A stretch of 64,000 bases of DNA from a virus (lineage: Duplodnaviria; Caudoviricetes). Where the stretch lies: positions 1 to 64,000 of IMG/VR virus record IMGVR_UViG_3300020577_011395; one strand, written 5' to 3'. Within the stretch, counting starts at the first letter, position 1. Each line of letters begins with the position of its first letter. The notes below the pieces were generated by a model that searched no databases, was not told where the DNA came from, and saw nothing but the letters and a program-made list of their open reading frames with translations. A program made the position numbers and the translations under genes. Positions 3,605-48,868 of the stretch are shown in pieces.

Positions 3605-3636
3605 TAATATATATTTTCTTTGAAAGCGGTTGGAAT

Positions 3637-4959
3637 ATGATAAATGGTCCCAAAGTTGGAGAAATATGGGCGCAGCATAACTTTTATTATCTTATATTGA
3701 AAGTCGACTTTGAAAGTGTAGATCTATTTTCGTTTACACGTGCAGAAATATTTTCAAGTTTTCCGATTAAGTATTTTGTAAACGGCTCTTGGGTTAAACA
3801 ATGTTAAAAAATAATCCAAAAGTAGGAGAAATATGGTGCTATGAAAAAGAAAAGTATATAGTTCTAGATATTATTATACAACAAGAAGAAACATATATTA
3901 ATTTTGCTTGTTTAGACAGCGATGATTTTGGAGCCTTATATGGCGATTACGAGCTTAGTGAAATGCAAACGCCATTTTGGAAGAAATTAGTTTAATTATT
4001 AAACAAGGAGCAATATAAAATGTATTCCATCACAAATATTATTTACGGTTATCCTATCACAACTGAAATTTCTAATCTTATTATCAAAAAAGAAGAAGAC
4101 CCAAATTCAGACTGGAACGAAGACAATGATATGGTTTGTGGCTTTAATAAGTATTATCATGGTTCTAGTGATTGTATTGTAGGATATGTTGGTGTCGAGC
4201 TAGATTCATTTGATGAATGCGGTGAAATGCTCAAACCTAGTAGCCTTAAGATGCAGCCGACAGAAAAACAAAAGCAGCAAGCTCTTAAAAAGATTAATGC
4301 GCTCACACCAGATTTCAAAAAGCTTGTTGGCGAGCCTGACGTATTCTTTGTTTTCTCAACATCGTAATGCGTAAAGTATCATATAATCCTAGTAAAGCTA
4401 AGCCAGGTGATTTATTCTTTTATCATAATTGGGATGGTAGTTTAAATTTTAAAATTGTTGTTAAGACAAGCCCTGTTTTATTGGTATATCATTGGAAGCA
4501 AAAAACGGTAGTTCAGTATACACCCACTAAAGAGTTTGATTACCACACTTATGTAGAGTGACATAAAAACATGGCGAATAATAAGCCCACTAAAGGAGAA
4601 ATTTGGGCATTTAAAGAACAAAGATATCTTATTTTAGAAACTTATTACAAAGATTTAGATTATACAAGTTTGTTTCCACTAGATTTACAAAATACTGATA
4701 TAATCGTATATCCTTTATATCATTTTACTAATATGTACTGGAAAAAAATATGTTAATTAAACCTAAAATTGGAGAAATCTGGCAATATGGTAAAAATGCA
4801 GGTCTTAAACCCTTTGGAAACTGCTATCTTATATTAAATGTAGTTACTAAATATATTGATTTATGTTGTATTGAAAATCTTATTAAAGGTGAAGTTAAAA
4901 AATTTTCGCTTTATCCGCAATCTTCATTTGATAATGATGAATGGTATAAGATTTGCTAA
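3637..4959 (+). CDS. cluster of PKxGEIW small paralogues plus hypothetical 4020-4367
   Basis: PK(V/I)GEIW...W(K/Y)K motif in the ORFs at ~3637, 3801, 4571 and 4750. Confidence 0.7.
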
Positions 4960-29857: not shown

Positions 29858-30187
29858 TTAGTCGTAGAACGGCTTTTCAAGCGGGAGGTATGCTCCCTTA
29901 TCTTCCCCGATCACCCATTCCTCTCCCTTGCAGGCCATGAGTTTAATGAAGTAAAGCAATTTCGCAACCTTGATCCCTGCCTTGGGATCACGCGGGTCAA
30001 TCACAACCCCGTGGCCCAATCGTTCATAGGTGTCATAGTACCAACCCCCTTCCTCCGGGCCACCATATGCACGGCCCATCAAATAGCAGGCGAGACGGGT
30101 CTTACGGGTCGGAATAACACCCCAAACCCTTTTCTTTTCTTTCCACTTAGTACCGGGGAGGGTAAACATCCCCACAAGTTTTGCCAT
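29858..30187 (-). CDS. hypothetical protein with YGGPEEGGWYY motif, flanked by a 28-bp inverted repeat
   Basis: ORF; inverted repeat 29824-29851 / 30196-30223. Confidence 0.65.
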   Translation of the reverse strand: MAKLVGMFTLPGTKWKEKKRVWGVIPTRKTRLACYLMGRAYGGPEEGGWYYDTYERLGHGVVIDPRDPKAGIKVAKLLYFIKLMACKGEEWVIGEDKGAYLPLEKPFYD

Positions 30188-39303: not shown

Positions 39304-39900
39304 ATGAAACAAAATTGGATGTCAGCTACAAAGCCCACAGCTGAAGAAGAAATAGAAGATCTAAATGATGTAGAAGAAATAGATAATTCTATCTTTTTTT
39401 ATACTGAAGTGACAAAAAAATCAGTTTATGAACTCAATAAAAAACTGAAAAAGATATCTGACAATTTAATAAATATTTCTAATACTCTTGGAATACCGCC
39501 TCCAAGTATAAAGATTCACATAAATAGTCCTGGTGGTAGTTTACTAGATTGCTTTGCTGCTGTAGACGCAATAAGAAAATGTAAAGTTCCAGTTCACACT
39601 ATTATAGAAGGCAGCGCAGCAAGTGCTGCAACGTTAATGTCTGTTGTTGCAAAAGAACGATCAATAAATAAACACGCATTTATGCTGATACATCAGCTAT
39701 CAGGTGGTATGTGGGGTAAGTTTGAAGAGATGAAAGATGAGTTTCAAAACTCAAAAATATTTATGGATACATTAATACGAATTTATTCAGAGAACACAAA
39801 AATACCAAAAGTAATATTAAAAGAAATACTAAAAAAAGATTTATATTGGGACGCAAAAACCTGCCTAAAATACGGGCTGGTTGACAAGATCGACGGGTGA
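39304..39900 (+). CDS. clpP: ClpP-like protease
   Basis: INSPGG, AASAA, MLIHQ and YGLVD motifs. Confidence 0.85.
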   Translation: MKQNWMSATKPTAEEEIEDLNDVEEIDNSIFFYTEVTKKSVYELNKKLKKISDNLINISNTLGIPPPSIKIHINSPGGSLLDCFAAVDAIRKCKVPVHTIIEGSAASAATLMSVVAKERSINKHAFMLIHQLSGGMWGKFEEMKDEFQNSKIFMDTLIRIYSENTKIPKVILKEILKKDLYWDAKTCLKYGLVDKIDG

Positions 39901-39953: not shown

Positions 39954-39988
39954 GCCCCTTGACAGACGGACGGGGCCATGCTAGAGTA
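39954..39988 (+). promoter_or_regulatory. tRNA-array promoter, identical 35-bp copy at 42033-42067, related copy at 45134-45162
   Basis: GCCCC-TTGACA-GACGGACGGGGCCATGC-TAGAGT-A. Confidence 0.85.
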
Positions 39989-40027: not shown

Positions 40028-40102
40028 GCGGGCATGATGTAATTGGCAACATTCCAGACTTCCAATCTGGCCTTACCAGATCATTGCTGGTTGTCCGCTC
40101 CA
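40028..40102 (+). tRNA. tRNA-Gly(TCC), atypical T-loop ATCATTG
   Basis: GCGGGCA/TGTCCGC-T-CCA; CCAGA-CTTCCAA-TCTGG. Confidence 0.8.
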
Positions 40103-40125
40103 CCTTCAAAAGAAAAGAGATAAAA

Positions 40126-40548
40126 ATGACTGTAAAAAAGAATACTAAACCTAAAGTTGTAATTCCAAAGATTAGTCAAGGCGATATGGTATATTTTGCT
40201 GAGAATTCTCATAGTCTTCAAACAGGTATGAAGCCAAACCACCTGTATGAAGTTGCTGGGGTAGACAAAGATGCTCGCACTGTTTTTATTGACCTAGACG
40301 GGAATAATAAACTAGCTCAAGTAGATATTATGGATTGTTTAGTACAAGATGTAGATAAAGACTTTGACCGTGGATACAAGCTTGGAAAAAAAATCGCTGA
40401 TCGCATGAAATGCGTTCTTCGAGAAGAATTAAAAAATGAAGCTGTTTATGGAGAAAATTTCTTACACGGATTCCAAGAATATGTAAATTATAATTCTGAG
40501 TTCGAAGATATTATAGAGAATAATCAAAAATTAGTTGAATACTGGTAA
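40126..40548 (+). CDS. hypothetical protein
   Basis: ORF between tRNAs. Confidence 0.6.
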   Translation: MTVKKNTKPKVVIPKISQGDMVYFAENSHSLQTGMKPNHLYEVAGVDKDARTVFIDLDGNNKLAQVDIMDCLVQDVDKDFDRGYKLGKKIADRMKCVLREELKNEAVYGENFLHGFQEYVNYNSEFEDIIENNQKLVEYW

Positions 40549-40562
40549 TATAAAGTAATTAT

Positions 40563-40639
40563 CCGGGTGTAGCTCAGTCGCGAAGAGCATCTGATTTGGG
40601 ATCAGAAGGCCGCAGGTTCGATTCCTGTCACCCGGACCA
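40563..40639 (+). tRNA. tRNA-Pro(TGG)
   Basis: cloverleaf; TCTGA-TTTGGGA-TCAGA; CCA. Confidence 0.92.
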
Positions 40640-40658
40640 ACCTTCTGAGAAGGTATTA

Positions 40659-41279
40659 ATGAAGTTAAGCGAAATCTCGATAGAAGAACTTTCTAAAATT
40701 ACTAAAGAAAGTTCTTCGTATGCTGAAGTCTTCCGACGTTTGGGAAGAAAGACCCATAGTGGCATGGGCCTAAAATATTTAAAGATAAAGTTAGAAGAAA
40801 ATAATATAGATGTTGGACATTTTAAAAGAGTTATAAAGCCAAATTCTATACCTAGATTAACAGCAGAAACAATTTTTCAAGATAACTATAAAATAAGATG
40901 TACCGCAAAAAAATTAAGAAAAACTCTTTTAAGTGTTGGCGTTGAACATAAATGTGCTGTATGTTCATTAACAACTTGGCAAAATAATAAAATTGTTTTA
41001 GAAATAGATCATATAGATGGCAATCCGCTAAACAACAAGATAGAAAATTTAAGATTTATATGTCCCAACTGCCACTCGCAAACGAATAATTATGGTTCTA
41101 AAAATATGAAAAAACAAACCAAGAAAGTTTATATAAAGCGCCAACGAAAAACAAAAATAAATTGGCCTTCAAAAGAAAAGCTACAAGAACTTCTAGACAA
41201 GAATTCTTTTGAAGAAGCTGCAAGATTTCTTGGTGTATCATCAAATGCAATTAGAAAAAGACTAAAAAAGGAGTATTAG
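40659..41279 (+). CDS. HNH homing endonuclease with C-terminal HTH
   Basis: CAVC...EIDHIDGN...NLRFICPNCHS; AARFLGVSSNAIRKRL. Confidence 0.9.
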   Translation: MKLSEISIEELSKITKESSSYAEVFRRLGRKTHSGMGLKYLKIKLEENNIDVGHFKRVIKPNSIPRLTAETIFQDNYKIRCTAKKLRKTLLSVGVEHKCAVCSLTTWQNNKIVLEIDHIDGNPLNNKIENLRFICPNCHSQTNNYGSKNMKKQTKKVYIKRQRKTKINWPSKEKLQELLDKNSFEEAARFLGVSSNAIRKRLKKEY

Positions 41280-41343
41280 GTTAATGGTAAACCGGGGAGC
41301 TGTCGACTCTCAAAAAAGGGTTCAATTCCCTTATACTCCGCCA
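41270..41343 (+). tRNA. tRNA-Asp(GTC), overlaps the HNH stop codon
   Basis: GGAGTAT/ATACTCC-G-CCA; loop CTGTCGA. Confidence 0.88.
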
Positions 41344-41852
41344 TTTTCTTTAAAAGGATTTATAAAATGTCTCTACTAAAGAATAGAGTAAGCGGAAAAG
41401 TAAAGTTTTTATTCTACCAAGCTGGTCAGCTATGGTATGAGTGTGAAGATAGTTACAGATTTTCAGTAGATGTTCCCGGAGATACTGGAACAGGTAGATT
41501 TCTTGTCGAAGATAAGGGTCTATATTTTATGAGATATATTAGAAAGTCAATGAATTTAGAGGAGTAAAATAATGTCTGAAAATCTATATAAACAATGTGT
41601 ACTAGTAAAATCAGTTGGAGAATCAAAAATCTTTGATACTTCTTGGATTCCTCAAAAATTCGCTAAGCAAGGCAAACAATTAAAAATTAAGAATTCTCAT
41701 GGTATCTGGGAAGATGGTTGGACTGTAGAATCAGCAGGAACAAATGCACTAGAGTTCGTTGCTCTACAGAGACAAGAAGATTCTCAGAGATATCTAGCTC
41801 ATAAAGTAGCAATTAAGGACGATAGAAGTTTAAGTAAGTAAAAATAGAATAC

Positions 41853-41945
41853 GGAAGGTTGGCCGAGTCTGGTTTAAGGCGACAGTCTTGAAAACTGTAG
41901 AACCTCAAAAGGGTTCCGTGAGTTCAAATCCCACACCTTCCTCCA
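41853..41945 (+). tRNA. tRNA-Ser(TGA)
   Basis: long variable arm; ACAGT-CTTGAAA-ACTGT. Confidence 0.92.
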
Positions 41946-41948
41946 ATT

Positions 41949-42023
41949 GGGTCGATAGTGAAATGGCTATCACAGCAGTCTCCAAAACTGCCTTTCTAGG
42001 TTCGAGTCCTAGTCGGCCCGCCA
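41949..42023 (+). tRNA. tRNA-Trp(CCA)
   Basis: GCAGT-CTCCAAA-ACTGC; CCA. Confidence 0.92.
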
Positions 42024-42081
42024 CAATAAGATGCCCCTTGACAGACGGACGGGGCCATGCTAGAGTAAGAAAATAAAGTAC

Positions 42082-42120
42082 GGGGAAGCGGCAAAGTTGG
42101 AGAGTTGGAGTGGACTATAA
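42082..42120 (+). pseudogene. 5' half of a disrupted tRNA (probably Tyr)
   Basis: GGGGAAG-CG-GCAAAGTTGGAGAGTTGG-A-GTGGA-CTATAA, stops in the anticodon loop; directly after a promoter. Confidence 0.7.
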
Positions 42121-42158
42121 TAAATTTAACCTTTCAATTTTTCAAAACTATATATAGT

Positions 42159-42680
42159 ATGAACACTATAAAATGTAAAAGTTGTCAAGAATATTTTGAA
42201 GTTACTGCCAATACTAAAAGAAAAATTTTTTGTAATAGAAAGTGTTCTGCTCAATATAATAATAAGCGTAGAATAGTTTCTGAATCTACAAGACTAAAAT
42301 ATAGTGAAAATCTCAAAAATAGAATTAAAGTGAATGGCCCACTAACTTCCGGGGAAACGGCTATAAAATATGGCTCGGATAGTCAAAAAGGCAAGCATAA
42401 TAAAGAAATAAAATCAATTTATGAATGTTCCTCTCGTACTAGAGAAAAAATAATTAAACGCTTAAAAATGGGTTGTTCTAGGTGTGGTTGGTCTGAAGGT
42501 AATGGCGACATACATCATATAAATGGAAGAAAAATAGAAGACGCTAATAATATGTCAAATCTTTGTTATTTGTGCCCTAATTGTCATAGATTATGTCACG
42601 AAGGCAAAATATTAAAAGAATCTTTAATTCCTTTATCAAAAACAATACCTGAAAACTGGAAAGAATATTATTATGGTTGA
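42159..42680 (+). CDS. HNH homing endonuclease
   Basis: CKSC..FCNRKC N-domain; CSRC...DIHHI...NLCYLCPNCHRLCH. Confidence 0.88.
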   Translation: MNTIKCKSCQEYFEVTANTKRKIFCNRKCSAQYNNKRRIVSESTRLKYSENLKNRIKVNGPLTSGETAIKYGSDSQKGKHNKEIKSIYECSSRTREKIIKRLKMGCSRCGWSEGNGDIHHINGRKIEDANNMSNLCYLCPNCHRLCHEGKILKESLIPLSKTIPENWKEYYYG

Positions 42681-42766
42681 GTTCCCGTAGCGGCGAACGG
42701 AGCAAGCTGTAACCTTGCCACCCAAAGAGGTAAACACCGTAGGTTCAATTCCTACCTCAACCACCA
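42675..42766 (+). tRNA. tRNA-Tyr(GTA), overlaps the HNH stop codon
   Basis: GGTTGAG/CTCAACC-A-CCA; GCAAG-CTGTAAC-CTTGC; long variable arm. Confidence 0.9.
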
Positions 42767-42774
42767 ATTTTTAT

Positions 42775-42849
42775 GGCCCTATAGTATAACGTATATTACA
42801 CTTGGCTACGAACTAAGAAATCAAGGTTAAATTCCTTGTAGGGCTACCA
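42775..42849 (+). tRNA. tRNA-Arg(ACG)
   Basis: CTTGG-CTACGAA-CTAAG; CCA. Confidence 0.85.
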
Positions 42850-43271
42850 AGAAAAGAGTTTCTTAAATGAAAAAAGAAATGAAAAAAGAAAAGAAAAATT
42901 AAATTTAGTTTTTGAAAAGATAAATGATTATAACCTAGCCGAACTAGAACTGGCAGTTAAAAAAGCAAAAGAAGCTATGCAAAATGGTTCTTGGACAAAT
43001 ATAAAATTATCTTATGATACTACTGATGAGTATGACGACGAATGTGGCGAGTATATAGAAGACGTTGAAATACATTTATTTGGAAGTCGTTTAGAAACAG
43101 ATAAAGAATTTGAAGATAGATTAGTACAAGAAGCAGAAAACGAAAGACTTCGTAAAGAATATCTTCTTAAAGAAAAAGAAAGGCTAAAACAAGTAGAACT
43201 TAAAAAAGTAGAAGAACGAAATGAGCTACAAGAATATAAGCGCCTTAAAGCTAAATATGGATAAGATATAT

Positions 43272-43343
43272 GCGGATGCGATTTTGGAACAGTCTAGGTT
43301 GCCAACTTGGACAAAATGGGTTCGATCCCCATCGTCCGCGCCA
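43272..43343 (+). tRNA. tRNA-Gly(GCC), reduced D-arm
   Basis: loop TTGCCAA; T-arm ATGGG-TTCGATC-CCCAT; G-CCA end. Confidence 0.7.
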
Positions 43344-43363
43344 ATTTTGAAAGAAAGATGAAT

Positions 43364-43449
43364 GGTCCTCTGGTGGAATTTGGTAGACACACTAGGTTTA
43401 GACCCTAACGCCTTCGGGCATCACGGTTCGAGTCCGTGGGGGATCACCA
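43364..43449 (+). tRNA. tRNA-Leu(TAG)
   Basis: loop TTTAGAC; long variable arm; CCA. Confidence 0.9.
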
Positions 43450-43454
43450 ATAAT

Positions 43455-43530
43455 GCTGCTTGAGCTAGTATGGTTATAGCACCAGTCTGAAGAACTGGCA
43501 AACTTGGTTCAATTCCAAGAGGCAGCACCA
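43455..43530 (+). tRNA. tRNA-Phe(GAA)
   Basis: CCAGT-CTGAAGA-ACTGG. Confidence 0.9.
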
Positions 43531-43974
43531 ACAACTGAAAAGAAGTATGCTAACATTGAGGTGCAGAATGGGTCTGCTAACTCACAATAAGAGTCGAGAA
43601 GTTAGCAGGTGCTCCACCCTTTCTTATGGGAGATTTCTAATTCTGAGGTTAAAATGTCAGAAATACTAAAGAAATATTTAGATCTTGACATTGAAGTTGA
43701 TCTTTTATTAAGACACGGATTTGAAGAAGAAGCCAATAAAGTGCTTGACAAGCAGGACGAGCTGTGGTACAAACTGTCCGAAGATGAGCACAACTGGCTG
43801 GATAAGAGATAAGCCATCATAGAATTTGGTTCAAAAATTTATTAAACCCTATCTTTAGAAAGATTCAATTTTGGACAGATAGACCTTACGTTATCTATTC
43901 AATCTTTGATGAGGAACTGAATAAAGTTGTTGGTTATGGCTTCGGAAGAGTAAAATATTACAAATAAAATATAT

Positions 43975-44049
43975 GGGCTGATAGTGATAGTGGTAGCACG
44001 CTGCGTTTGCACCGCAGAGGTTGGGGTTCAATTCCCCATCGGTCCACCA
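43975..44049 (+). tRNA. tRNA-Ala(TGC)
   Basis: G3-U70 pair; loop TTTGCAC. Confidence 0.92.
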
Positions 44050-44057
44050 AAGAATGT

Positions 44058-44136
44058 TTGGAAGAAGCAATTGTTGGTTTATTGCAGCTAGCTGTTAACT
44101 AGCCGTTCGCTGGTTCGATTCCAGCCTTCCAAGCCA
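44058..44136 (+). tRNA. tRNA-Asn(GTT)
   Basis: GCTAG-CTGTTAA-CTAGC; G-CCA. Confidence 0.9.
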
Positions 44137-44155
44137 ATTTTTAGAAAGGTAATAA

Positions 44156-44534
44156 ATGTATAATATTGGTGATTTAATTGTAATTAAAGATAAATATCGA
44201 CCAGATTACAATGTAATATATGTTTTAATAAAGTGCTTAAATGCAAACATTAATACTTGGGTCTGTTATGATATTGCAAAGCAGATTTCGCCAGAAATAA
44301 CGCTTTCAACCATAGGATACGGTTTTCTTGTTGAAAGGATATGGAATCGTGTATAAACCAGGTGATATGCTTTGTTATCAGTTTAATCCACCAACTGAAT
44401 TAAAATTTTATTATGTTCTATTAGAACCAAAAAAAGGAAATTCTGGTATTTGGATCGCTTGGGATGTTAAATATGCAAAGAAAACCCAGATTGGCACTAA
44501 AACGTCAAACAGAACAATAACAAAGGTAGAGTAA
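44156..44534 (+). CDS. two KxGD-family small paralogues inside the tRNA array
   Basis: YNIGDLI and YKPGDML N-termini. Confidence 0.6.
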
Positions 44535-44541
44535 AAAATAT

Positions 44542-44616
44542 GGCTCTTTAGTAGAATGGTTATAACGTTTGGCTTACATCCAAAAAAAGGGGGTTCAATT
44601 CCCTCAAGAGCTACCA
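44542..44616 (+). tRNA. tRNA-Val(TAC)
   Basis: TTTGG-CTTACAT-CCAAA. Confidence 0.9.
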
Positions 44617-44631
44617 AATTGGAGTACTAAA

Positions 44632-44838
44632 ATGTATAAAGAAAACCTACCAAAACTATGTTGTAAGAACGTTGGTGGCCATAGTGTTAAATGGTGCGGA
44701 CAAGAAGCAACAGTTTGGTATAAACACTACGGCACAGAAGATATTTGTTCTTATTGTGAGCAACACGATTACGAATGTGGTGAAAAAGTTAATATCGACC
44801 CCTTGGCCGAGAGTCTAGGCATTAGTCTGCAAAACTAA
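44632..44838 (+). CDS. Cys-rich small protein whose 3' end runs into tRNA-Cys
   Basis: GGAG RBS; CC..C..CxxCxxH. Confidence 0.5.
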   Translation: MYKENLPKLCCKNVGGHSVKWCGQEATVWYKHYGTEDICSYCEQHDYECGEKVNIDPLAESLGISLQN

Positions 44839-44870
44839 TCACATTGGTTAAAATCCAATAGGGGTCTCCA
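44797..44870 (+). tRNA. tRNA-Cys(GCA)
   Basis: GACCCCT/AGGGGTC-T-CCA; loop CTGCAAA. Confidence 0.9.
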
Positions 44871-44886
44871 AGAAGGGAACTAATTT

Positions 44887-45102
44887 ATGCTGATTGAAGC
44901 TGTAACAGAAGGTGCAATTGTCACTACCGCTGTTGATTTAGAAAGTGGCGGTATAACAATTCCAAAAGGAATACAGGGAACCGTGGTGCATATTTATCCA
45001 GGCTCACAGGCTTTTGAAGTTGAATTTCTTCTTGATATTAATACGGAAGATACATATACTCTAGTTGTAACTGTAATGTTTAATCAACTAGAACTTGTGT
45101 GA
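44887..45102 (+). CDS. DUF4926-like small beta-barrel protein
   Basis: IPKGIQGTVVHIY...AFEVEF. Confidence 0.7.
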   Translation: MLIEAVTEGAIVTTAVDLESGGITIPKGIQGTVVHIYPGSQAFEVEFLLDINTEDTYTLVVTVMFNQLELV

Positions 45103-45206
45103 GCGGGAATAAAACAGAAAAATAAAGAGCCGCTTGACACGCCGCCGGACCTGTGGTAGAGTAGGTTCATAAGATTGAGACACACCAAAGAAAAGGATTG
45201 ATAAAA

Positions 45207-45677
45207 ATGAACACTGTAAAACTTCGCAAGGCCCTCCAAATTAAGAATCGTCTAGCTGGTGAAATTGCTAATCTAACTCGTCGTCTGAATGTAAACAACC
45301 ATCCTGACCAAGATGGTAAGGCTCCTGAGTTTGATATTCGTGCCCTTTTAGCTGAACGTAAAGAACTAGTAAATAAGCTAGTACAGGTAAAGACTGTTAT
45401 TGCAAAGGCTAACGTTGATATCTATGAAAAGATCAATCAACTAGCTGAACTAAAGAGCGAGGTTTCTGTACTATCTCTAATCCCTACTCAAGATGTTCGT
45501 GGCAATAAAAGAGTACTAGTTGAAGGCCGTTATGATTATCTTGATACTGTTACACCTGCGGTTATTAAATCTAAAGAAGTACAAGAAAAAGTTACTGCTC
45601 TTAATTTAGAAATTGAAAGTCTACAAGACGCAATCGACTATCATAATTCGGTCACTGATGTTGTTGTGCCGGAATAA
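45207..45677 (+). CDS. helical coiled-coil protein, DIP1984/DUF6847-like
   Basis: KLxKALxxKNRLxxEI...IAKAN...LQDAIDYHNSVT pattern (recalled similarity, not searched). Confidence 0.55.
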   Translation: MNTVKLRKALQIKNRLAGEIANLTRRLNVNNHPDQDGKAPEFDIRALLAERKELVNKLVQVKTVIAKANVDIYEKINQLAELKSEVSVLSLIPTQDVRGNKRVLVEGRYDYLDTVTPAVIKSKEVQEKVTALNLEIESLQDAIDYHNSVTDVVVPE

Positions 45678-45692
45678 GTTAGTCTAAAAGCT

Positions 45693-45939
45693 AGGGAGTA
45701 GCCAACACCTATTCCAACATATTTTAGAATATAATGGTTAAAAATCTTTCGATTCATACTCGAAAACCTCCTTTGCCTGGATGATAAAACACGACAAGGA
45801 TAAGGAACAGCGGATTCGTCCGCCCAAAACTTAAGTCTTTTTCTATTAAGATTGAAAGTTTAAAACCTAAACCACAAACTCTAAAATTCTTCCAACCATT
45901 TTTTTGAAGTGTGCTTGGAGTAGGTGTTGGCGAAACCTT
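45693..45939 (+). ncRNA. stem-closed structured RNA with heptamer-periodic loop
   Basis: 17-bp closing stem 45701-45717 / 45915-45931, AGTA/GAAA internal loop, NAANNNN units at 45825-45888. Confidence 0.65.
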
Positions 45940-45950
45940 TTATAATTTAT

Positions 45951-46026
45951 GGGATCGTAGCTCAATTGGCAGAGCATTCCGCTTTTAACGGACAGGTTGT
46001 GGGATCGTCACCCACCGATCCCACCA
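45951..46026 (+). tRNA. tRNA-Lys(TTT)
   Basis: loop CTTTTAA; T-loop ATCGTCA; CCA. Confidence 0.88.
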
Positions 46027-46119
46027 AATGGTTTTTCGAGCATTAACTCGAAACCTTGGACTGCTGGATAACCAAGCCGGTGAAAGACCGAAGAAACCCA
46101 GCCTTAATTTTGTTTCAAG

Positions 46120-46198
46120 TTTTTAGAACATAGCTTAACGGAAAAGCATACCTCAAAATAGAGGTGGATTTTGGTTCGAATCCAAATGATTCTAAAAA
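46120..46198 (+). ncRNA. tRNA-like element 1 (6-nt anticodon loop, no CCA)
   Basis: D-arm GCTT/AAGC, ACCTC-AAAATA-GAGGT, T-arm TTTGG-TTCGAAT-CCAAA. Confidence 0.6.
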
Positions 46199-46227
46199 GT
46201 TTTTATTGTACTACTTAAAATAAGTAT

Positions 46228-46305
46228 GGCCCATTCATCTACGTTTGGCTAGGATATTGGACTTTCACTCCAACAAAACGGGATCGACACCCGTATGGGC
46301 TACCA
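46228..46305 (+). tRNA. tRNA-Glu(TTC)
   Basis: TTGGA-CTTTCAC-TCCAA. Confidence 0.9.
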
Positions 46306-46307
46306 AT

Positions 46308-46387
46308 TTGTAAGATATCATCCTTGGGGATATTAGGCACCCTTGAAGTGCCTACGGCACAGTTCAAATCTGTGATATACTTACAAT
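46308..46387 (+). ncRNA. tRNA-like element 2
   Basis: bulged terminal stem; TAGGCAC-CCTTGAA-GTGCCTA; T-arm CACAG-TTCAAAT-CTGTG; no CCA. Confidence 0.6.
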
Positions 46388-46391
46388 AATT

Positions 46392-46470
46392 TTGTAGAGG
46401 TCTTACTAGGGTAGGTATTGCGGTCGCGGAGACAGCAAAAGCTGGTTCAACTCCAGCAGACACTTTACAA
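46392..46470 (+). ncRNA. tRNA-like element 3
   Basis: bulged terminal stem TTGTAGAG-GTCT / AGAC-A-CTTTACAA; T-arm GCTGG-TTCAACT-CCAGC; no CCA. Confidence 0.6.
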
Positions 46471-46479
46471 TAAATTTAT

Positions 46480-46572
46480 GGAAGGTTGGGTGAGTGTCTT
46501 AAACCAGTTGCCTGCTAAGCGACCATGGCCTTTAAAAAGCCATCGTGGGTTAAAATCCCACACCTTCCGCCA
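46480..46572 (+). tRNA. tRNA-Ser(GCT)
   Basis: loop CTGCTAA; long variable arm. Confidence 0.9.
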
Positions 46573-46580
46573 ATATTAAA

Positions 46581-46760
46581 ATGACCTGTGATATCTGTAA
46601 AGAAAAAAAGTTCGTCTACGAAAAAAAAGTCCTTGACGAGCTTATTACTCTGTGCGAAGATTGTGACTGGTCAACAGAAGATATAAAAGAAGCGGATAAG
46701 ATTGGACAAGCTATGAAAGATAAGTTGTCTGAGATTATGAAAGAAATGTTTAAAGACTAA
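46581..46760 (+). CDS. 59-aa Zn-finger protein (not in ORF track)
   Basis: MTCDIC...LCEDC. Confidence 0.55.
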   Translation: MTCDICKEKKFVYEKKVLDELITLCEDCDWSTEDIKEADKIGQAMKDKLSEIMKEMFKD

Positions 46761-46771
46761 TTAAAATAAAT

Positions 46772-46847
46772 GCATCAGTAGCTCAACAGGTAGAGCACTT
46801 GTTTTGTAATCAAGCGGTTGTAGGTTCAATTCCTATCTGATGCTCCA
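46772..46847 (+). tRNA. tRNA-Thr(TGT)
   Basis: loop TTTGTAA; T-CCA. Confidence 0.9.
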
Positions 46848-46920
46848 ATTTTGTTTAGCTATGGAATCTGGCGGGATCAAGCCAATTGACGATCCCAAGC
46901 CCATAGCTAAACATCTTTTT

Positions 46921-46995
46921 ACGAGTATAGTGAAATGGTTATCACACTTGTCTGATACACAGGTATTCAAAGTTCAAATCTTTGTACTCGTACCA
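46921..46995 (+). tRNA. tRNA-Ile(GAT)
   Basis: loop CTGATAC. Confidence 0.88.
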
Positions 46996-47009
46996 AATTT
47001 ATAAGAAAT

Positions 47010-47087
47010 GGCCCTCTAGCGCAACAGGTAGGAGGCAGCAGACTCAAAATCTGTACAGTGTGGGTTCGAATCCCACGGGGGCCACCA
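47010..47087 (+). tRNA. tRNA-Leu(CAA), short variable arm
   Basis: GCAGA-CTCAAAA-TCTGT; variable region ACAGT. Confidence 0.88.
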
Positions 47088-47095
47088 AATTTTAT

Positions 47096-47171
47096 ACTCC
47101 CTTAGCGCAGCGGTTAGCGCAGCGAGCTTATATCTCGTTGGTCGCTGGTTCAAATCCAGCAGGGAGTACCA
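47096..47171 (+). tRNA. tRNA-Ile(TAT)
   Basis: GCGAG-CTTATAT-CTCGT. Confidence 0.88.
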
Positions 47172-47187
47172 ATTGAAAAGAAAGTTT

Positions 47188-47263
47188 GGGACTTTAGCTC
47201 AGCTGGGAGAGCATTCGACTCTTAATCGACAGGTCGTGAGTTCAAATCTCACAAGTCCTACCA
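47188..47263 (+). tRNA. tRNA-Lys(CTT)
   Basis: loop CTCTTAA. Confidence 0.92.
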
Positions 47264-47277
47264 AAATAAAATAGTTC

Positions 47278-47353
47278 GGTCTTGTCATCTAACGGTTTAG
47301 GATATAGCCCTCTCACGGCTAGTATTGGGGTTCGAATCCCCACAGGATCACCA
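47278..47353 (+). tRNA. tRNA-Glu(CTC)
   Basis: TAGCC-CTCTCAC-GGCTA. Confidence 0.92.
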
Positions 47354-47360
47354 AAATCAT

Positions 47361-47437
47361 GCATCCGTAACTCAACTGGACAGAGTAACGAGCTTCTACC
47401 TCGTAAGCTGTAGGTTCAAATCCTACCGGATGCGCCA
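47361..47437 (+). tRNA. tRNA-Arg(TCT)
   Basis: ACGAG-CTTCTAC-CTCGT. Confidence 0.92.
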
Positions 47438-47585
47438 ATTGTAAGGTTCGTTTAGCTTAATGACCACCTTAAAAGGTATGAGGATATTCTAGATAATATC
47501 ATATGGATAAAGGTTTATTTTAAAGAGCCTACGAATCGTATCGTAGAGGTCTGGAATGGCAAACCAGAGCGGACATCAAATTTAT

Positions 47586-47659
47586 TGGGGAATCATCTAA
47601 CGGCAGGATAACGCTCTCTGAAAGCGTCCATGATGGTTCGAATCCATCTTCCCCAACCA
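47586..47659 (+). tRNA. tRNA-Gln(CTG)
   Basis: ACGCT-CTCTGAA-AGCGT. Confidence 0.9.
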
Positions 47660-47667
47660 AAGGATTT

Positions 47668-47979
47668 ATGCTAAAGATATTAGCTTTTATATTGTTGTAC
47701 CTTACACCGATTAGTACTGCCGCTCAAAGCACTGCTTCTGTTCATGTTGCAGCGACTATTTCTCCTTCCGTGAATGTTTATTCGGATGAAAATATTATAT
47801 ACTGGATAAGTAATTGCGAAGATGCTAGTGTTAGTGCAGTGATAAACAATGAATTTGTAGCTTTAAATACGCCAGAAAGAATATATACTCTAGAAAATGT
47901 TGAGCTAATGGCATCTGGAGTTAAAGAAGAAGATATATTTAAAGATAACCAAAATTATTTGATGTTAGCAAGAAAATAG
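47668..47979 (+). CDS. secreted/periplasmic hypothetical
   Basis: signal-peptide-like N-terminus. Confidence 0.55.
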   Translation: MLKILAFILLYLTPISTAAQSTASVHVAATISPSVNVYSDENIIYWISNCEDASVSAVINNEFVALNTPERIYTLENVELMASGVKEEDIFKDNQNYLMLARK

Positions 47980-47986
47980 AAAGTAT

Positions 47987-48061
47987 TCCCCTTTCGTCTA
48001 ATTGGCAGGACAGTAGACTTTGAATCTGCTTATCTACGTTCAAATCGTAGAAGGGGAACCA
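47987..48061 (+). tRNA. tRNA-Gln(TTG)
   Basis: GTAGA-CTTTGAA-TCTGC. Confidence 0.9.
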
Positions 48062-48069
48062 AATTTTAT

Positions 48070-48144
48070 AGCGTGTGGCAGGTTAGATCTGAGCCAGTCT
48101 CATAAGCTGGAAAAACCGGGTGCGATTCCCGCGTAACGCTACCA
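48070..48144 (+). tRNA. atypical tRNA-CAT (Met)
   Basis: CCAGT-CTCATAA-GCTGG and CCA, but imperfect acceptor/T stems, minimal D-arm, T-loop TGCGATT. Confidence 0.6.
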
Positions 48145-48169
48145 ATTTTTAAAGAGACTACTTATATAC

Positions 48170-48694
48170 ATGAAGATTAAAATCTTAAAAGAGTCACTTG
48201 AAGAACCAAAAGGTCTAGGAAATAAGCTTGGGTCTGGCGTTCAAGGGATTGTATATAGGCTTGAAAATGGCCAAGTAGCGAAACTGACAAAAAAGAAACA
48301 AGAAGCAGAAATCGCAACTCTCATTTTAAATAAAAAAATATTTCATGAAGCCTTACCAATATTCACATCCGTGAATAAAACAACAGAAAATAAATGGTGG
48401 TTGGTAAGAGAAGATTTACGGGACTTCCCAAAAAACAAAGAATTGGACCGAGTTCTTGGTGACTTCGAGGTGATGACAGTTTACACTGATTGGTCACCAG
48501 CAGTCCAACAAGCACAAAATTCGTTAAATAGTCTAGAGGGTAAAAATCTAGAATATGCTAAAAAAATGTTTTCTCTCTATGAATATGCAAAACAAATAGG
48601 CATGAAGCTTACAGACTCTAGAACAAGCAATTGGGGTTTAAGAGGCGATCAGCCAGTTTTAAGAGATTTTGGCGCAGCAAGAATAAATGTATAA
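48170..48694 (+). CDS. minimal protein-kinase-like fold protein
   Basis: LGSGVQGIVY (Gly loop), VAK, E, DxxxxN and DFG motifs. Confidence 0.75.
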   Translation: MKIKILKESLEEPKGLGNKLGSGVQGIVYRLENGQVAKLTKKKQEAEIATLILNKKIFHEALPIFTSVNKTTENKWWLVREDLRDFPKNKELDRVLGDFEVMTVYTDWSPAVQQAQNSLNSLEGKNLEYAKKMFSLYEYAKQIGMKLTDSRTSNWGLRGDQPVLRDFGAARINV

Positions 48695-48704
48695 ATTAAA
48701 ATAT

Positions 48705-48781
48705 GGTGAATGTAGCTTAATTGTTAAAGCACCAGATTGTGAATCTGGCATATGTGGGTTAAAGTCCCATCATTTACCCCA
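48705..48781 (+). tRNA. tRNA-His(GTG)
   Basis: G-1:C73; CCAGA-TTGTGAA-TCTGG. Confidence 0.92.
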
Positions 48782-48793
48782 ATAAGAAAGTAT

Positions 48794-48868
48794 GCTAGTA
48801 TAGTGAAAAGGTTATCACACTCCTCTCATACGGGATTATTGTCAGTTCGATTCTGACTACTAGTACCA
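48794..48868 (+). tRNA. tRNA-CAT (Met or Ile2)
   Basis: loop CTCATAC; CCA. Confidence 0.8.

Follow-up and report, generated by a model that had tools for sequence, protein, structure and literature searches.

Results

The locus and its promoter

We analysed a locus in the transfer RNA (tRNA) array of a large, uncultured virus of the Caudoviricetes (Duplodnaviria), in which the 5′ half of a tRNA-Tyr gene, a gene for an HNH endonuclease and an intact tRNA-Tyr gene follow one another on the + strand. The stretch under study, which we call the window, comprises the first 64 kb (64,000 nucleotides, nt) of the 129-kb IMG/VR record IMGVR_UViG_3300020577_011395, whose completeness was estimated at ~40% by CheckV. 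It contains 29 tRNA genes, 28 of them in an array at 40028-48868 and one at 789-866, and three HNH genes lie among these tRNA genes (920-1507, 40659-41279 and 42159-42680). The intact tRNA-Tyr gene (42675-42766) is the sole one across the 129 kb of the record.

A promoter-like site, TTGACA-N17-TAGAGT with a TG-extended −10 box, is located at 42038-42066 (+ strand). It is an exact 29-nt duplicate of 39959-39987, which lies 5′ of tRNA-Gly, and shuffled sequences yielded no such pair. The tRNA-Tyr fragment begins 15 nt past its −10 box, in agreement with an earlier note, made from the sequence of this stretch without database searches, that had placed a promoter directly ahead of the tRNA half. 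Judging from its sequence and position, the site is probably the resident tRNA promoter, which would now drive the fragment, the HNH gene and the tRNA-Tyr. The promoter-like family is phage-specific, with copies at 39881, 39959, 42038 and 45118, and AGGTTCATAAG is found downstream of two of these copies.

The fragment at 42082-42120 is probably the 5′ half of an older tRNA-Tyr

The fragment at 42082-42120 (+ strand) runs from the acceptor strand to position 37 of the anticodon loop. An acceptor strand of 7 nt (GGGGAAG) is followed by CG, by a D arm whose loop contains GG, by a single base and by GTGGA and CTATAA. We searched 2.3 Gb of phage genomes by blastn with a 48-base query, which returned 16 records with a best expect value (E) of 0.02. 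All 11 records in which at least 69% of the query was covered match one gene, tRNA-Tyr, in Bacillus, Streptomyces or Microbacterium phages; the annotation reads tRNA-Tyr in nine of them and tRNA-OTHER in two (the same gene in Tsamsa). At 32 of 39 positions, the fragment matches the intact tRNA-Tyr gene found in Bacillus phage Tsamsa/Chewbecca, and the match ends exactly after loop position 37. When the fragment was compared with ~200 unique phage tRNA 5′ halves, the Tsamsa-type tRNA-Tyr scored 25 and the runner-up, a tRNA-Ser, scored 11; with the anticodon loop left out, the scores were 19 for the Tsamsa type and 10 for the next best. These results, on which the isotype call rests by homology rather than by an isotype covariance model, support the proposal of a Tyr-type half whose break lies in the anticodon loop. 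The Rfam tRNA model gave no match to the fragment, either in its context or at the end of a stretch, but because half a cloverleaf is not scorable, this result is no evidence against a tRNA origin.

The homology over the acceptor strand, the D arm and the anticodon stem is clear, but the fragment's anticodon reads ATA instead of the GTA of tRNA-Tyr. In an alignment, the fragment is in register with the intact Chewbecca gene and with 5′ halves that lie upstream of HNH homologues in other phages (loci L037, L042, L052, L056 and L060; we refer to homologous loci by such numbers). In L042, L052, L056, L060 and the window, the half breaks off after the loop and gives way to A/T-rich sequence. Compared with L056 and L060, the fragment keeps the 3′ D-stem strand GTTGG, two changes in the 5′ strand break D-stem pairs, and G34 is replaced by A. 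As read from the sequence, the two lost D-stem pairs and the change of G34 are what a dead gene should show.

The mate of the acceptor strand, CTTCCCC, occurs on the + strand of the window only in tRNA-Gln and at 29902, neither of which is a tRNA-Tyr 3′ half. We also considered that the fragment might have been copied from a tRNA of the phage itself, of which there are 29, and rejected this origin; the best local score was 20, in the wrong region of tRNA-Phe. The difference in sequence between the fragment and the intact tRNA-Tyr, which the earlier note had pointed out, is large, with only 46% identity over the 5′ half.

The HNH gene and its leader

Similarity to tRNA stops at 42121, where the left end of the inserted sequence and the 5′ untranslated region of the HNH gene begin (42121-42158, + strand). 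This leader is A/T-rich (TAAATTTAAC...), and relatives have an A/T-rich ...TTTACA... sequence at the corresponding position. RNA folding of the leader was not significant (z = −0.41 against shuffles). From 42121 to 42766, the base composition does not look foreign, with 31-35% guanine-cytosine content versus 33-39% in the surroundings. Models of group I and group II introns had no match at E up to 10 in 42020-42800, and an intron of group I or II that carries an endonuclease open reading frame (ORF), which calls for a ribozyme core and both exons, was rejected for the window, where we found neither a ribozyme core nor the second exon.

The gene at 42159-42680 (+ strand) encodes a protein of 173 amino acids, which was identified as an HNH endonuclease from PHROG 1271 (HNH, E = 1.6e-12), its homologues and a fold model; the Pfam HNH model PF01844 scored 20.5 bits, slightly below its cut-off of 21.4. 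A large protein collection yielded 74 homologues of similar length, the best of them with 54% identity. In an alignment of 11 homologues, an N-terminal four-Cys zinc ribbon precedes the core CxxC...DIHHINGRKI...CPNCHRL, which is invariant, and ...YYG is conserved at the C-terminus; the protein of the window retains all 33 invariant columns. The motif DIHHINGRKI...N..NL..CPNCHRL, invariant in all 11 homologues, corresponds to the beta-beta-alpha metal motif of HNH (His-Me finger) endonucleases, with its catalytic His, an Asn and a final His/Asn, and the Cys pairs C106-x2-C109 and C139-x2-C142 on either side, invariant or present in at least 90% of the rows, correspond to zinc binding of the McrA/Cas9 type. 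The best fold matches of the AlphaFold model (predicted local distance difference test score of 80.5) were McrA-type HNH domains, and sequence matches were to the HNH domains of IscB and McrA. The fold search returned generic HNH domains only (such as McrA and Cap5), and a known homing enzyme was not among the close matches.

Compared with the HNH proteins encoded at 920 and 40659, identity is 31-38% and is confined to the catalytic core (40-105 residues). The best PHROG also differs, being 1271 for the gene at 42159-42680 and 14736/10822 for the other two, and the gene therefore belongs to a subtype different from those at 920 and 40659, as had been suggested for the former.

The intact tRNA-Tyr and its overlap with the HNH gene

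ARAGORN identified a tRNA-Tyr(gta) of 92 nt at 42675-42766 (+ strand), and the Rfam model RF00005 scored 35.8 bits, compared with a gathering score of 29. The gene has the features of a bacterial-type tRNA-Tyr, namely a class II cloverleaf with a long variable arm and the anticodon GTA, and it includes an encoded CCA. The last two codons of the HNH gene, GGT TGA (Gly and stop), are bases 1-6 of this tRNA, which amounts to a 6-nt overlap and agrees with the reading of the sequence in the earlier note. Such an overlap of stop codon and tRNA was also seen in L043, L052, L056, L085-87 and L098, but other relatives have a spacer of 0-12 nt between the HNH gene and the tRNA, some have the tRNA upstream and some have none. 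The overlap itself thus stands, but the idea that it physically locks nuclease and replacement tRNA together was overstated, because it is not universal among these genes and is known from T4 segB.

Several tRNA-Tyr genes that accompany HNH homologues, which we call passengers, are oddly shaped (L036:2844-2937, L046:2026-2115, L052:2020-2103 and those downstream of the HNH gene in L057-L059). Their D arm is reduced or odd, their variable regions are long or odd, and ARAGORN misses them even though a Tyr anticodon arm is present along with acceptor stems and a T arm.

The HNH clade is linked to tRNA-Tyr genes

We examined the DNA around HNH homologues in 11 metagenomic contexts, in which the proteins are 42-54% identical to that of the window. 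A tRNA-Tyr or Tyr-like gene adjoins the HNH gene in 10 of the 11. It lies directly downstream, at distances from a 7-nt overlap to a 9-nt spacer after the stop codon, in seven of these (the window, L037, L040, L041, L042, L043 and L046); in L033, L036 and L044 it lies upstream and is followed by a hairpin.

A profile scan of IMG/VR added 80 further loci, and the 53 longest matches, which comprise 40 distinct sequences, were analysed. In these 40 loci, 20 of the 39 tRNAs located at most 120 nt from the ORF are tRNA-Tyr, compared with 1 of the 173 located farther away (Fisher test, 2.4e-16). Because ARAGORN misses several of the odd passengers, we also counted Tyr-type anticodon arms directly and found one within 140 nt of the HNH gene in 39 of 51 distinct loci, versus 8 for the best genuine control anticodon (an apparent count of 26 for the control CGA stems from the T-loop TTCGAAT and was discounted). 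These locus counts share ancestry and are not independent events, and the linkage is kept through ~50% protein divergence. Flanking protein genes differ in every locus, and the conserved unit is therefore the HNH gene together with tRNA-Tyr. A nuclease lineage that is found in unrelated genomic backgrounds and retains the association with its target, here in 39 of 51 loci, is characteristic of free-standing homing endonuclease genes.

The linkage extends to Lak megaphages, in which a distant homologue starts 4 nt after a tRNA-Tyr (L048-L050, corresponding to Prevotella phages Lak-B1, Lak-C1 and Lak-A2). In L048, a T-arm-like piece lies ~40 nt upstream of the tRNA-Tyr.

Related loci show the HNH gene nested within tRNA-Tyr

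The sister of the HNH protein of the window in the HNH tree is that of L037 (97/82 support). In L037, a 39-nt tRNA-Tyr 5′ half ending in CTGTAA (2888-2926) is followed by an insert of 691 bp, which consists of the HNH gene and an intact tRNA-Tyr, and then by a 3′ half (3618-3656). Within the 3′ half, C-ACAGG and a T arm are followed by the acceptor strand, whose pairing with the 5′ half upstream is 7/7. When the halves were joined in silico, ARAGORN called a tRNA-Tyr(GTA), whereas each half alone gave no call. The insert, or cassette, of L037 sits exactly between positions 37 and 38 of the resident tRNA-Tyr gene.

L052 shows a 5′ half, an HNH gene whose GGG TGA overlaps an odd tRNA-Tyr, and a remnant of T arm and acceptor strand, complementary to that half. 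The downstream tRNA of L056, a close relative of L052, combines a 5′ acceptor strand from the cassette with a 3′ strand from the resident gene, a mixture that marks recombination between passenger and resident tRNAs. An unpaired CTGTA[AG] loop upstream combined with a full Tyr arm downstream was found in 11 loci, compared with at most 3 for control anticodons.

Other layouts occur as well. In L062 and L063, the HNH gene alone lies between two matching tRNA-Tyr halves with no adjacent spare tRNA (L063:1396-2064), and in L069 (1398-2072) it is inserted after the anticodon arm of a tRNA-Tyr, also without a spare tRNA alongside. The tRNA-Tyr halves pair perfectly in these three loci, the ORF runs into the 3′ half, and no intron model matched. 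In L055, L070 and L080, tRNA-Tyr is present on both sides of the HNH gene. The layouts are scattered over the HNH tree and change often. Models of group I and II introns found no match in L037, L052, L056, L063, L069 or L076.

In 9 of 24 relatives, the loop sequence TGTAA upstream of the HNH gene is followed within 27 nt by its reverse complement TTACA (4.5% in shuffles), for example in L056 (1468-1485), L052 (1460-1475), L042 (2956-2971), L064 (1351-1370) and L036 (2944-2977). The pattern forms a perfect 18-nt palindrome in L056 and has 14-bp arms in L036, and it is absent from the window. Possible meanings are an operator, a hairpin and a repair footprint.

Other tRNA and HNH elements in the window

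A mirror-image arrangement is found at 781-1543, where GGGGATA (781-787) is followed by an intact tRNA-Leu(TAA) at 789-866 and by the HNH gene of the other subtype at 920-1507. Directly after the stop codon of this gene lies a tRNA 3′ piece (1508-1543), in which the T arm is perfect and TATCCCT-A-CCA pairs 7/7 with GGGGATA. The earlier note had proposed that such breaking and replacing of tRNAs recurs independently. Recurrence is borne out by this tRNA-Leu case, by the many phages with the HNH clade described here and by L037 with both its halves; independence of the events is not, inheritance by homing being the alternative.

The third HNH gene, at 40659-41279 (PHROG 10822, E = 6e-46), starts 19 nt past a tRNA-Pro, and its end overlaps the first 10 nt of a tRNA-Asp (41270). 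A small hairpin, CCTTC-TGA-GAAGG, lies between the tRNA-Pro and the ATG of this gene, and we detected no tRNA fragment next to the gene. At 46027-46479 lie several tRNA-like elements (e.g., 46171-46185 and 46441-46459), which have good T arms and were not called by ARAGORN. Phages related through ClpP (50-65% identity; L009, L010, L013, L019, L023 and L024) carry transfer-messenger RNA genes near clpP, and the window has no such gene.

Discussion

An intron-less homing cassette as the best explanation

We propose that the sequence from 42121 to ~42766 is an intron-less homing cassette, consisting of a free-standing HNH gene and its own tRNA-Tyr, at the site of a former resident tRNA-Tyr gene, and we give this interpretation a probability of roughly 0.7. 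In a mixed infection, the HNH enzyme would cut or nick the tRNA-Tyr gene of an HNH-less phage in or near the anticodon loop, as the insertion point suggests, and repair would copy the donor, with the tRNA halves, the passenger tRNA and the neighbouring tRNA genes providing homology. The recipient would be left with the decaying 5′ half of its old gene (42082-42120), the HNH gene and the passenger tRNA-Tyr, which would maintain the phage's supply of tRNA-Tyr and would presumably not be cut itself. The surviving 5′ half would be a scar and probably the left homology arm, and loss of the old 3′ half would be expected if the right-hand crossover fell in the passenger tRNA or beyond. The HNH gene is probably transcribed from the old tRNA promoter at 42038-42066 as part of a tRNA precursor, in which cleavage by RNase P at the 5′ end of the passenger would remove the HNH stop codon, as proposed for T4 segB.

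Several observations weigh against this proposal. The first gene past the cassette is a tRNA-Arg(ACG) at 42775-42849 (+ strand), and because the gap between it and tRNA-Tyr is only 8 nt, no 3′ half of the old tRNA-Tyr survives in the window, so that at this locus alone insertion cannot be distinguished from other rearrangements. We found no close relative of the phage, with or without the HNH gene, in IMG/VR, the JGI metagenomes or a phage collection, the nearest HNH being 54% and the nearest ClpP 65% identical, and there is consequently no empty-site allele. An empty site for L037 was likewise not found, either by its junction pattern in JGI metagenomes or through a neighbouring gene. A 23-mer of the fragment and a degenerate pattern retrieved only Tsamsa-like phages from IMG/VR, a 21-mer retrieved nothing useful from JGI metagenomes, and neither did the flanking ORFs 41572-41838 and 42977-43261 when used as probes for relatives; the ClpP relatives (50-65% identical) have few tRNAs and no tRNA-Tyr. 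Because the record is only ~40% complete, the statement that it has a single tRNA-Tyr is valid for the available 129 kb alone. The passengers of the sister HNH genes of the window and L037 are only 55% identical in their 5′ halves, which leaves strict co-inheritance of HNH and tRNA-Tyr unsupported, and pairwise 5′-half identities were uninformative on this point, with all pairs at 45-69%. The split tRNA-Tyr genes of L062/L063 and L069, which lack a passenger, imply that the passenger is not obligatory, and the layouts are scattered over the HNH tree without clustering.

Alternative explanations

Two alternatives appear unlikely, each to about the same degree. Units of tRNA-Tyr and nuclease gene could have been amplified head to tail, and later deletions could have left a truncated tRNA without any insertion into a resident gene. 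There is a precedent in escape mutants of T6, in which 718-bp tandem repeats of tRNA-Tyr and segB arise via microhomology that the tRNA's 5′ end shares with segB at its 3′ end (PMC13096335), and L055, L070 and L080, with tRNA-Tyr flanking the HNH gene on both sides, would fit such an origin. However, the fragment and the intact tRNA of the window share only 46% identity, the break lies at loop position 37 as it does in L037, L042, L052 and L056, and the upstream half, not the passenger, is the pairing partner of the 3′ remnants in L037 and L052. The other of these alternatives is that the half-tRNA has been kept for a function beyond that of a mere scar, either as an operator for self-repression of the HNH gene or as an RNA leader or processing signal. 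The homing endonuclease I-TevI represses its own promoter at a target-like site. The start of the half 15 nt after the −10 box would suit such a role, as would the persistence of half-sites upstream of the HNH gene in at least 11 diverged loci, and the excess of TGTAA/TTACA pairing among relatives (9/24 against 4.5% in shuffles) hints at a binding site or hairpin. Yet the copy in the window has lost the anticodon G and two D-stem pairs and lacks the palindrome, its leader folds no better than shuffles (z = −0.41), and the halves vary widely in sequence among loci. A function of the half is compatible with its origin as a scar and would add to the homing explanation instead of replacing it.

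We consider it very unlikely that the fragment is a pseudogene left by deletion or recombination of an array tRNA and that the HNH gene landed beside an existing tRNA-Tyr paralogue by an unrelated rearrangement. Arrays of tRNA genes are prone to recombination, the window has other tRNA-like pieces (781-787/1508-1543 and 46120-46470), and its locus has neither a 3′ half nor an empty site; but a history of this kind leaves unexplained why tRNA-Tyr adjoins the HNH gene of this clade in 39 of 51 loci, why at least 11 loci have halves with the break at one and the same loop position ahead of the HNH gene and why the cassette of L037 is nested. Least probable of all, and close to negligible, is a self-splicing or otherwise spliced tRNA intron with an HNH ORF, from which the old tRNA-Tyr would still be made. 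An insertion between 37 and 38 is at the classical position of tRNA introns, and the HNH ORF is all that separates the matching tRNA-Tyr halves in L062/L063. Against an intron, the window has no 3′ exon, group I and II models match neither the window nor any of the six relatives searched, and the non-coding part of the insert of the window is only 38 nt, with a whole tRNA gene inside the insert.

Significance and comparison with known systems

Homing endonucleases normally hide in a self-splicing intron or intein of an essential gene or sit beside their target. The locus described here supports a third homing route, in which the nuclease cuts a gene, lands inside it and carries a spare copy, and it offers a concrete mechanism for the rewriting and exchange of phage tRNA repertoires. 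The analysis also defines a sizeable HNH clade that ranges from environmental phages of at least 129 kb to Lak megaphages and has a predictable target, the anticodon loop of tRNA-Tyr, which makes the enzymes of this clade directly testable as new site-specific nucleases. The defence system Septu (PtuAB) cuts tRNA-Tyr in its variable loop (PMC13096335). Because Septu destroys tRNA-Tyr, the coupling of a mobile nuclease to a tRNA-Tyr that is itself mobile may be relevant to phage counter-defence. It is a speculative and rather doubtful extension that the clade acts as a gene drive spreading unusual tRNA-Tyr alleles, such as the oddly shaped passengers, between phages, alleles that might escape defences cutting tRNA-Tyr; joint selection of nuclease and anti-defence cargo would explain why the Tyr isotype is singled out.

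Homing endonucleases in phage tRNA clusters are already known. SegB homes in the tRNA cluster of T4, recognizes the T-loop and moves neighbouring tRNA genes (PMC2330249); its association with tRNAs is widespread and shows no isotype preference, and in T6 its amplification along with tRNA-Tyr serves to overcome Septu (PMC13096335). Maturation of tRNA-Arg severs the T4 segB message, the cut falling after the last codon and before the stop codon, which has been proposed to limit expression of the nuclease (PMC2330249). The locus of the window resembles this system in that the nuclease gene lies inside a phage tRNA array, as SegB does, which targets the tRNA genes of nuclease-less relatives and drags neighbours along, in that the stop codon lies at the 5′ end of the next tRNA, and in the pairing of nuclease and tRNA-Tyr, which is also the unit amplified in T6. 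It differs in that SegB is a GIY-YIG enzyme that recognizes a conserved T-loop motif, has no isotype preference and sits between intact genes, whereas here a clade of HNH enzymes is associated with the Tyr isotype, insertion is at the anticodon loop and the target persists as a broken half.

HNH genes also occur in the tRNA clusters of mycobacteriophages (PMC6409571), and the site-specific endonuclease ORFs of the HNH type named F-Tfl are described as lying in the tRNA cluster of T5, with expression thought to be limited by processing of the tRNA transcript (PMC2330249). The T5 genes share with ours the location of HNH ORFs inside a phage tRNA cluster, and the account of them in PMC2330249 mentions no broken-plus-replacement tRNA. 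T5-like phages were absent from the tblastn matches of the window's HNH at E 1e-8, so that no close sequence relation is detectable. A full-text search of the literature, of incomplete coverage, found no description of a nuclease with a spare tRNA inside the tRNA that it replaces.

Homing endonucleases also occur in group I introns, including the anticodon-loop introns of bacterial tRNAs. The proposed cassette would share with them the insertion within the anticodon loop, the use of the gene halves as homology arms and a cut-and-copy spread; unlike group I introns, the window has no ribozyme and no possibility of splicing, and the gene would be rescued by a carried spare copy instead of by RNA splicing. 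Genomic islands and prophages of the integrase type, for which tRNA genes are insertion sites, bring a replacement 3′ end with them. As in these islands, a mobile element would bring the sequence that keeps a functional tRNA, but whereas the islands rely on site-specific recombinases and duplicate no more of the same tRNA than its 3′ part, the cassette has a nuclease and a whole divergent tRNA and no integrase. What is new here is an HNH clade tied to tRNA-Tyr genes.

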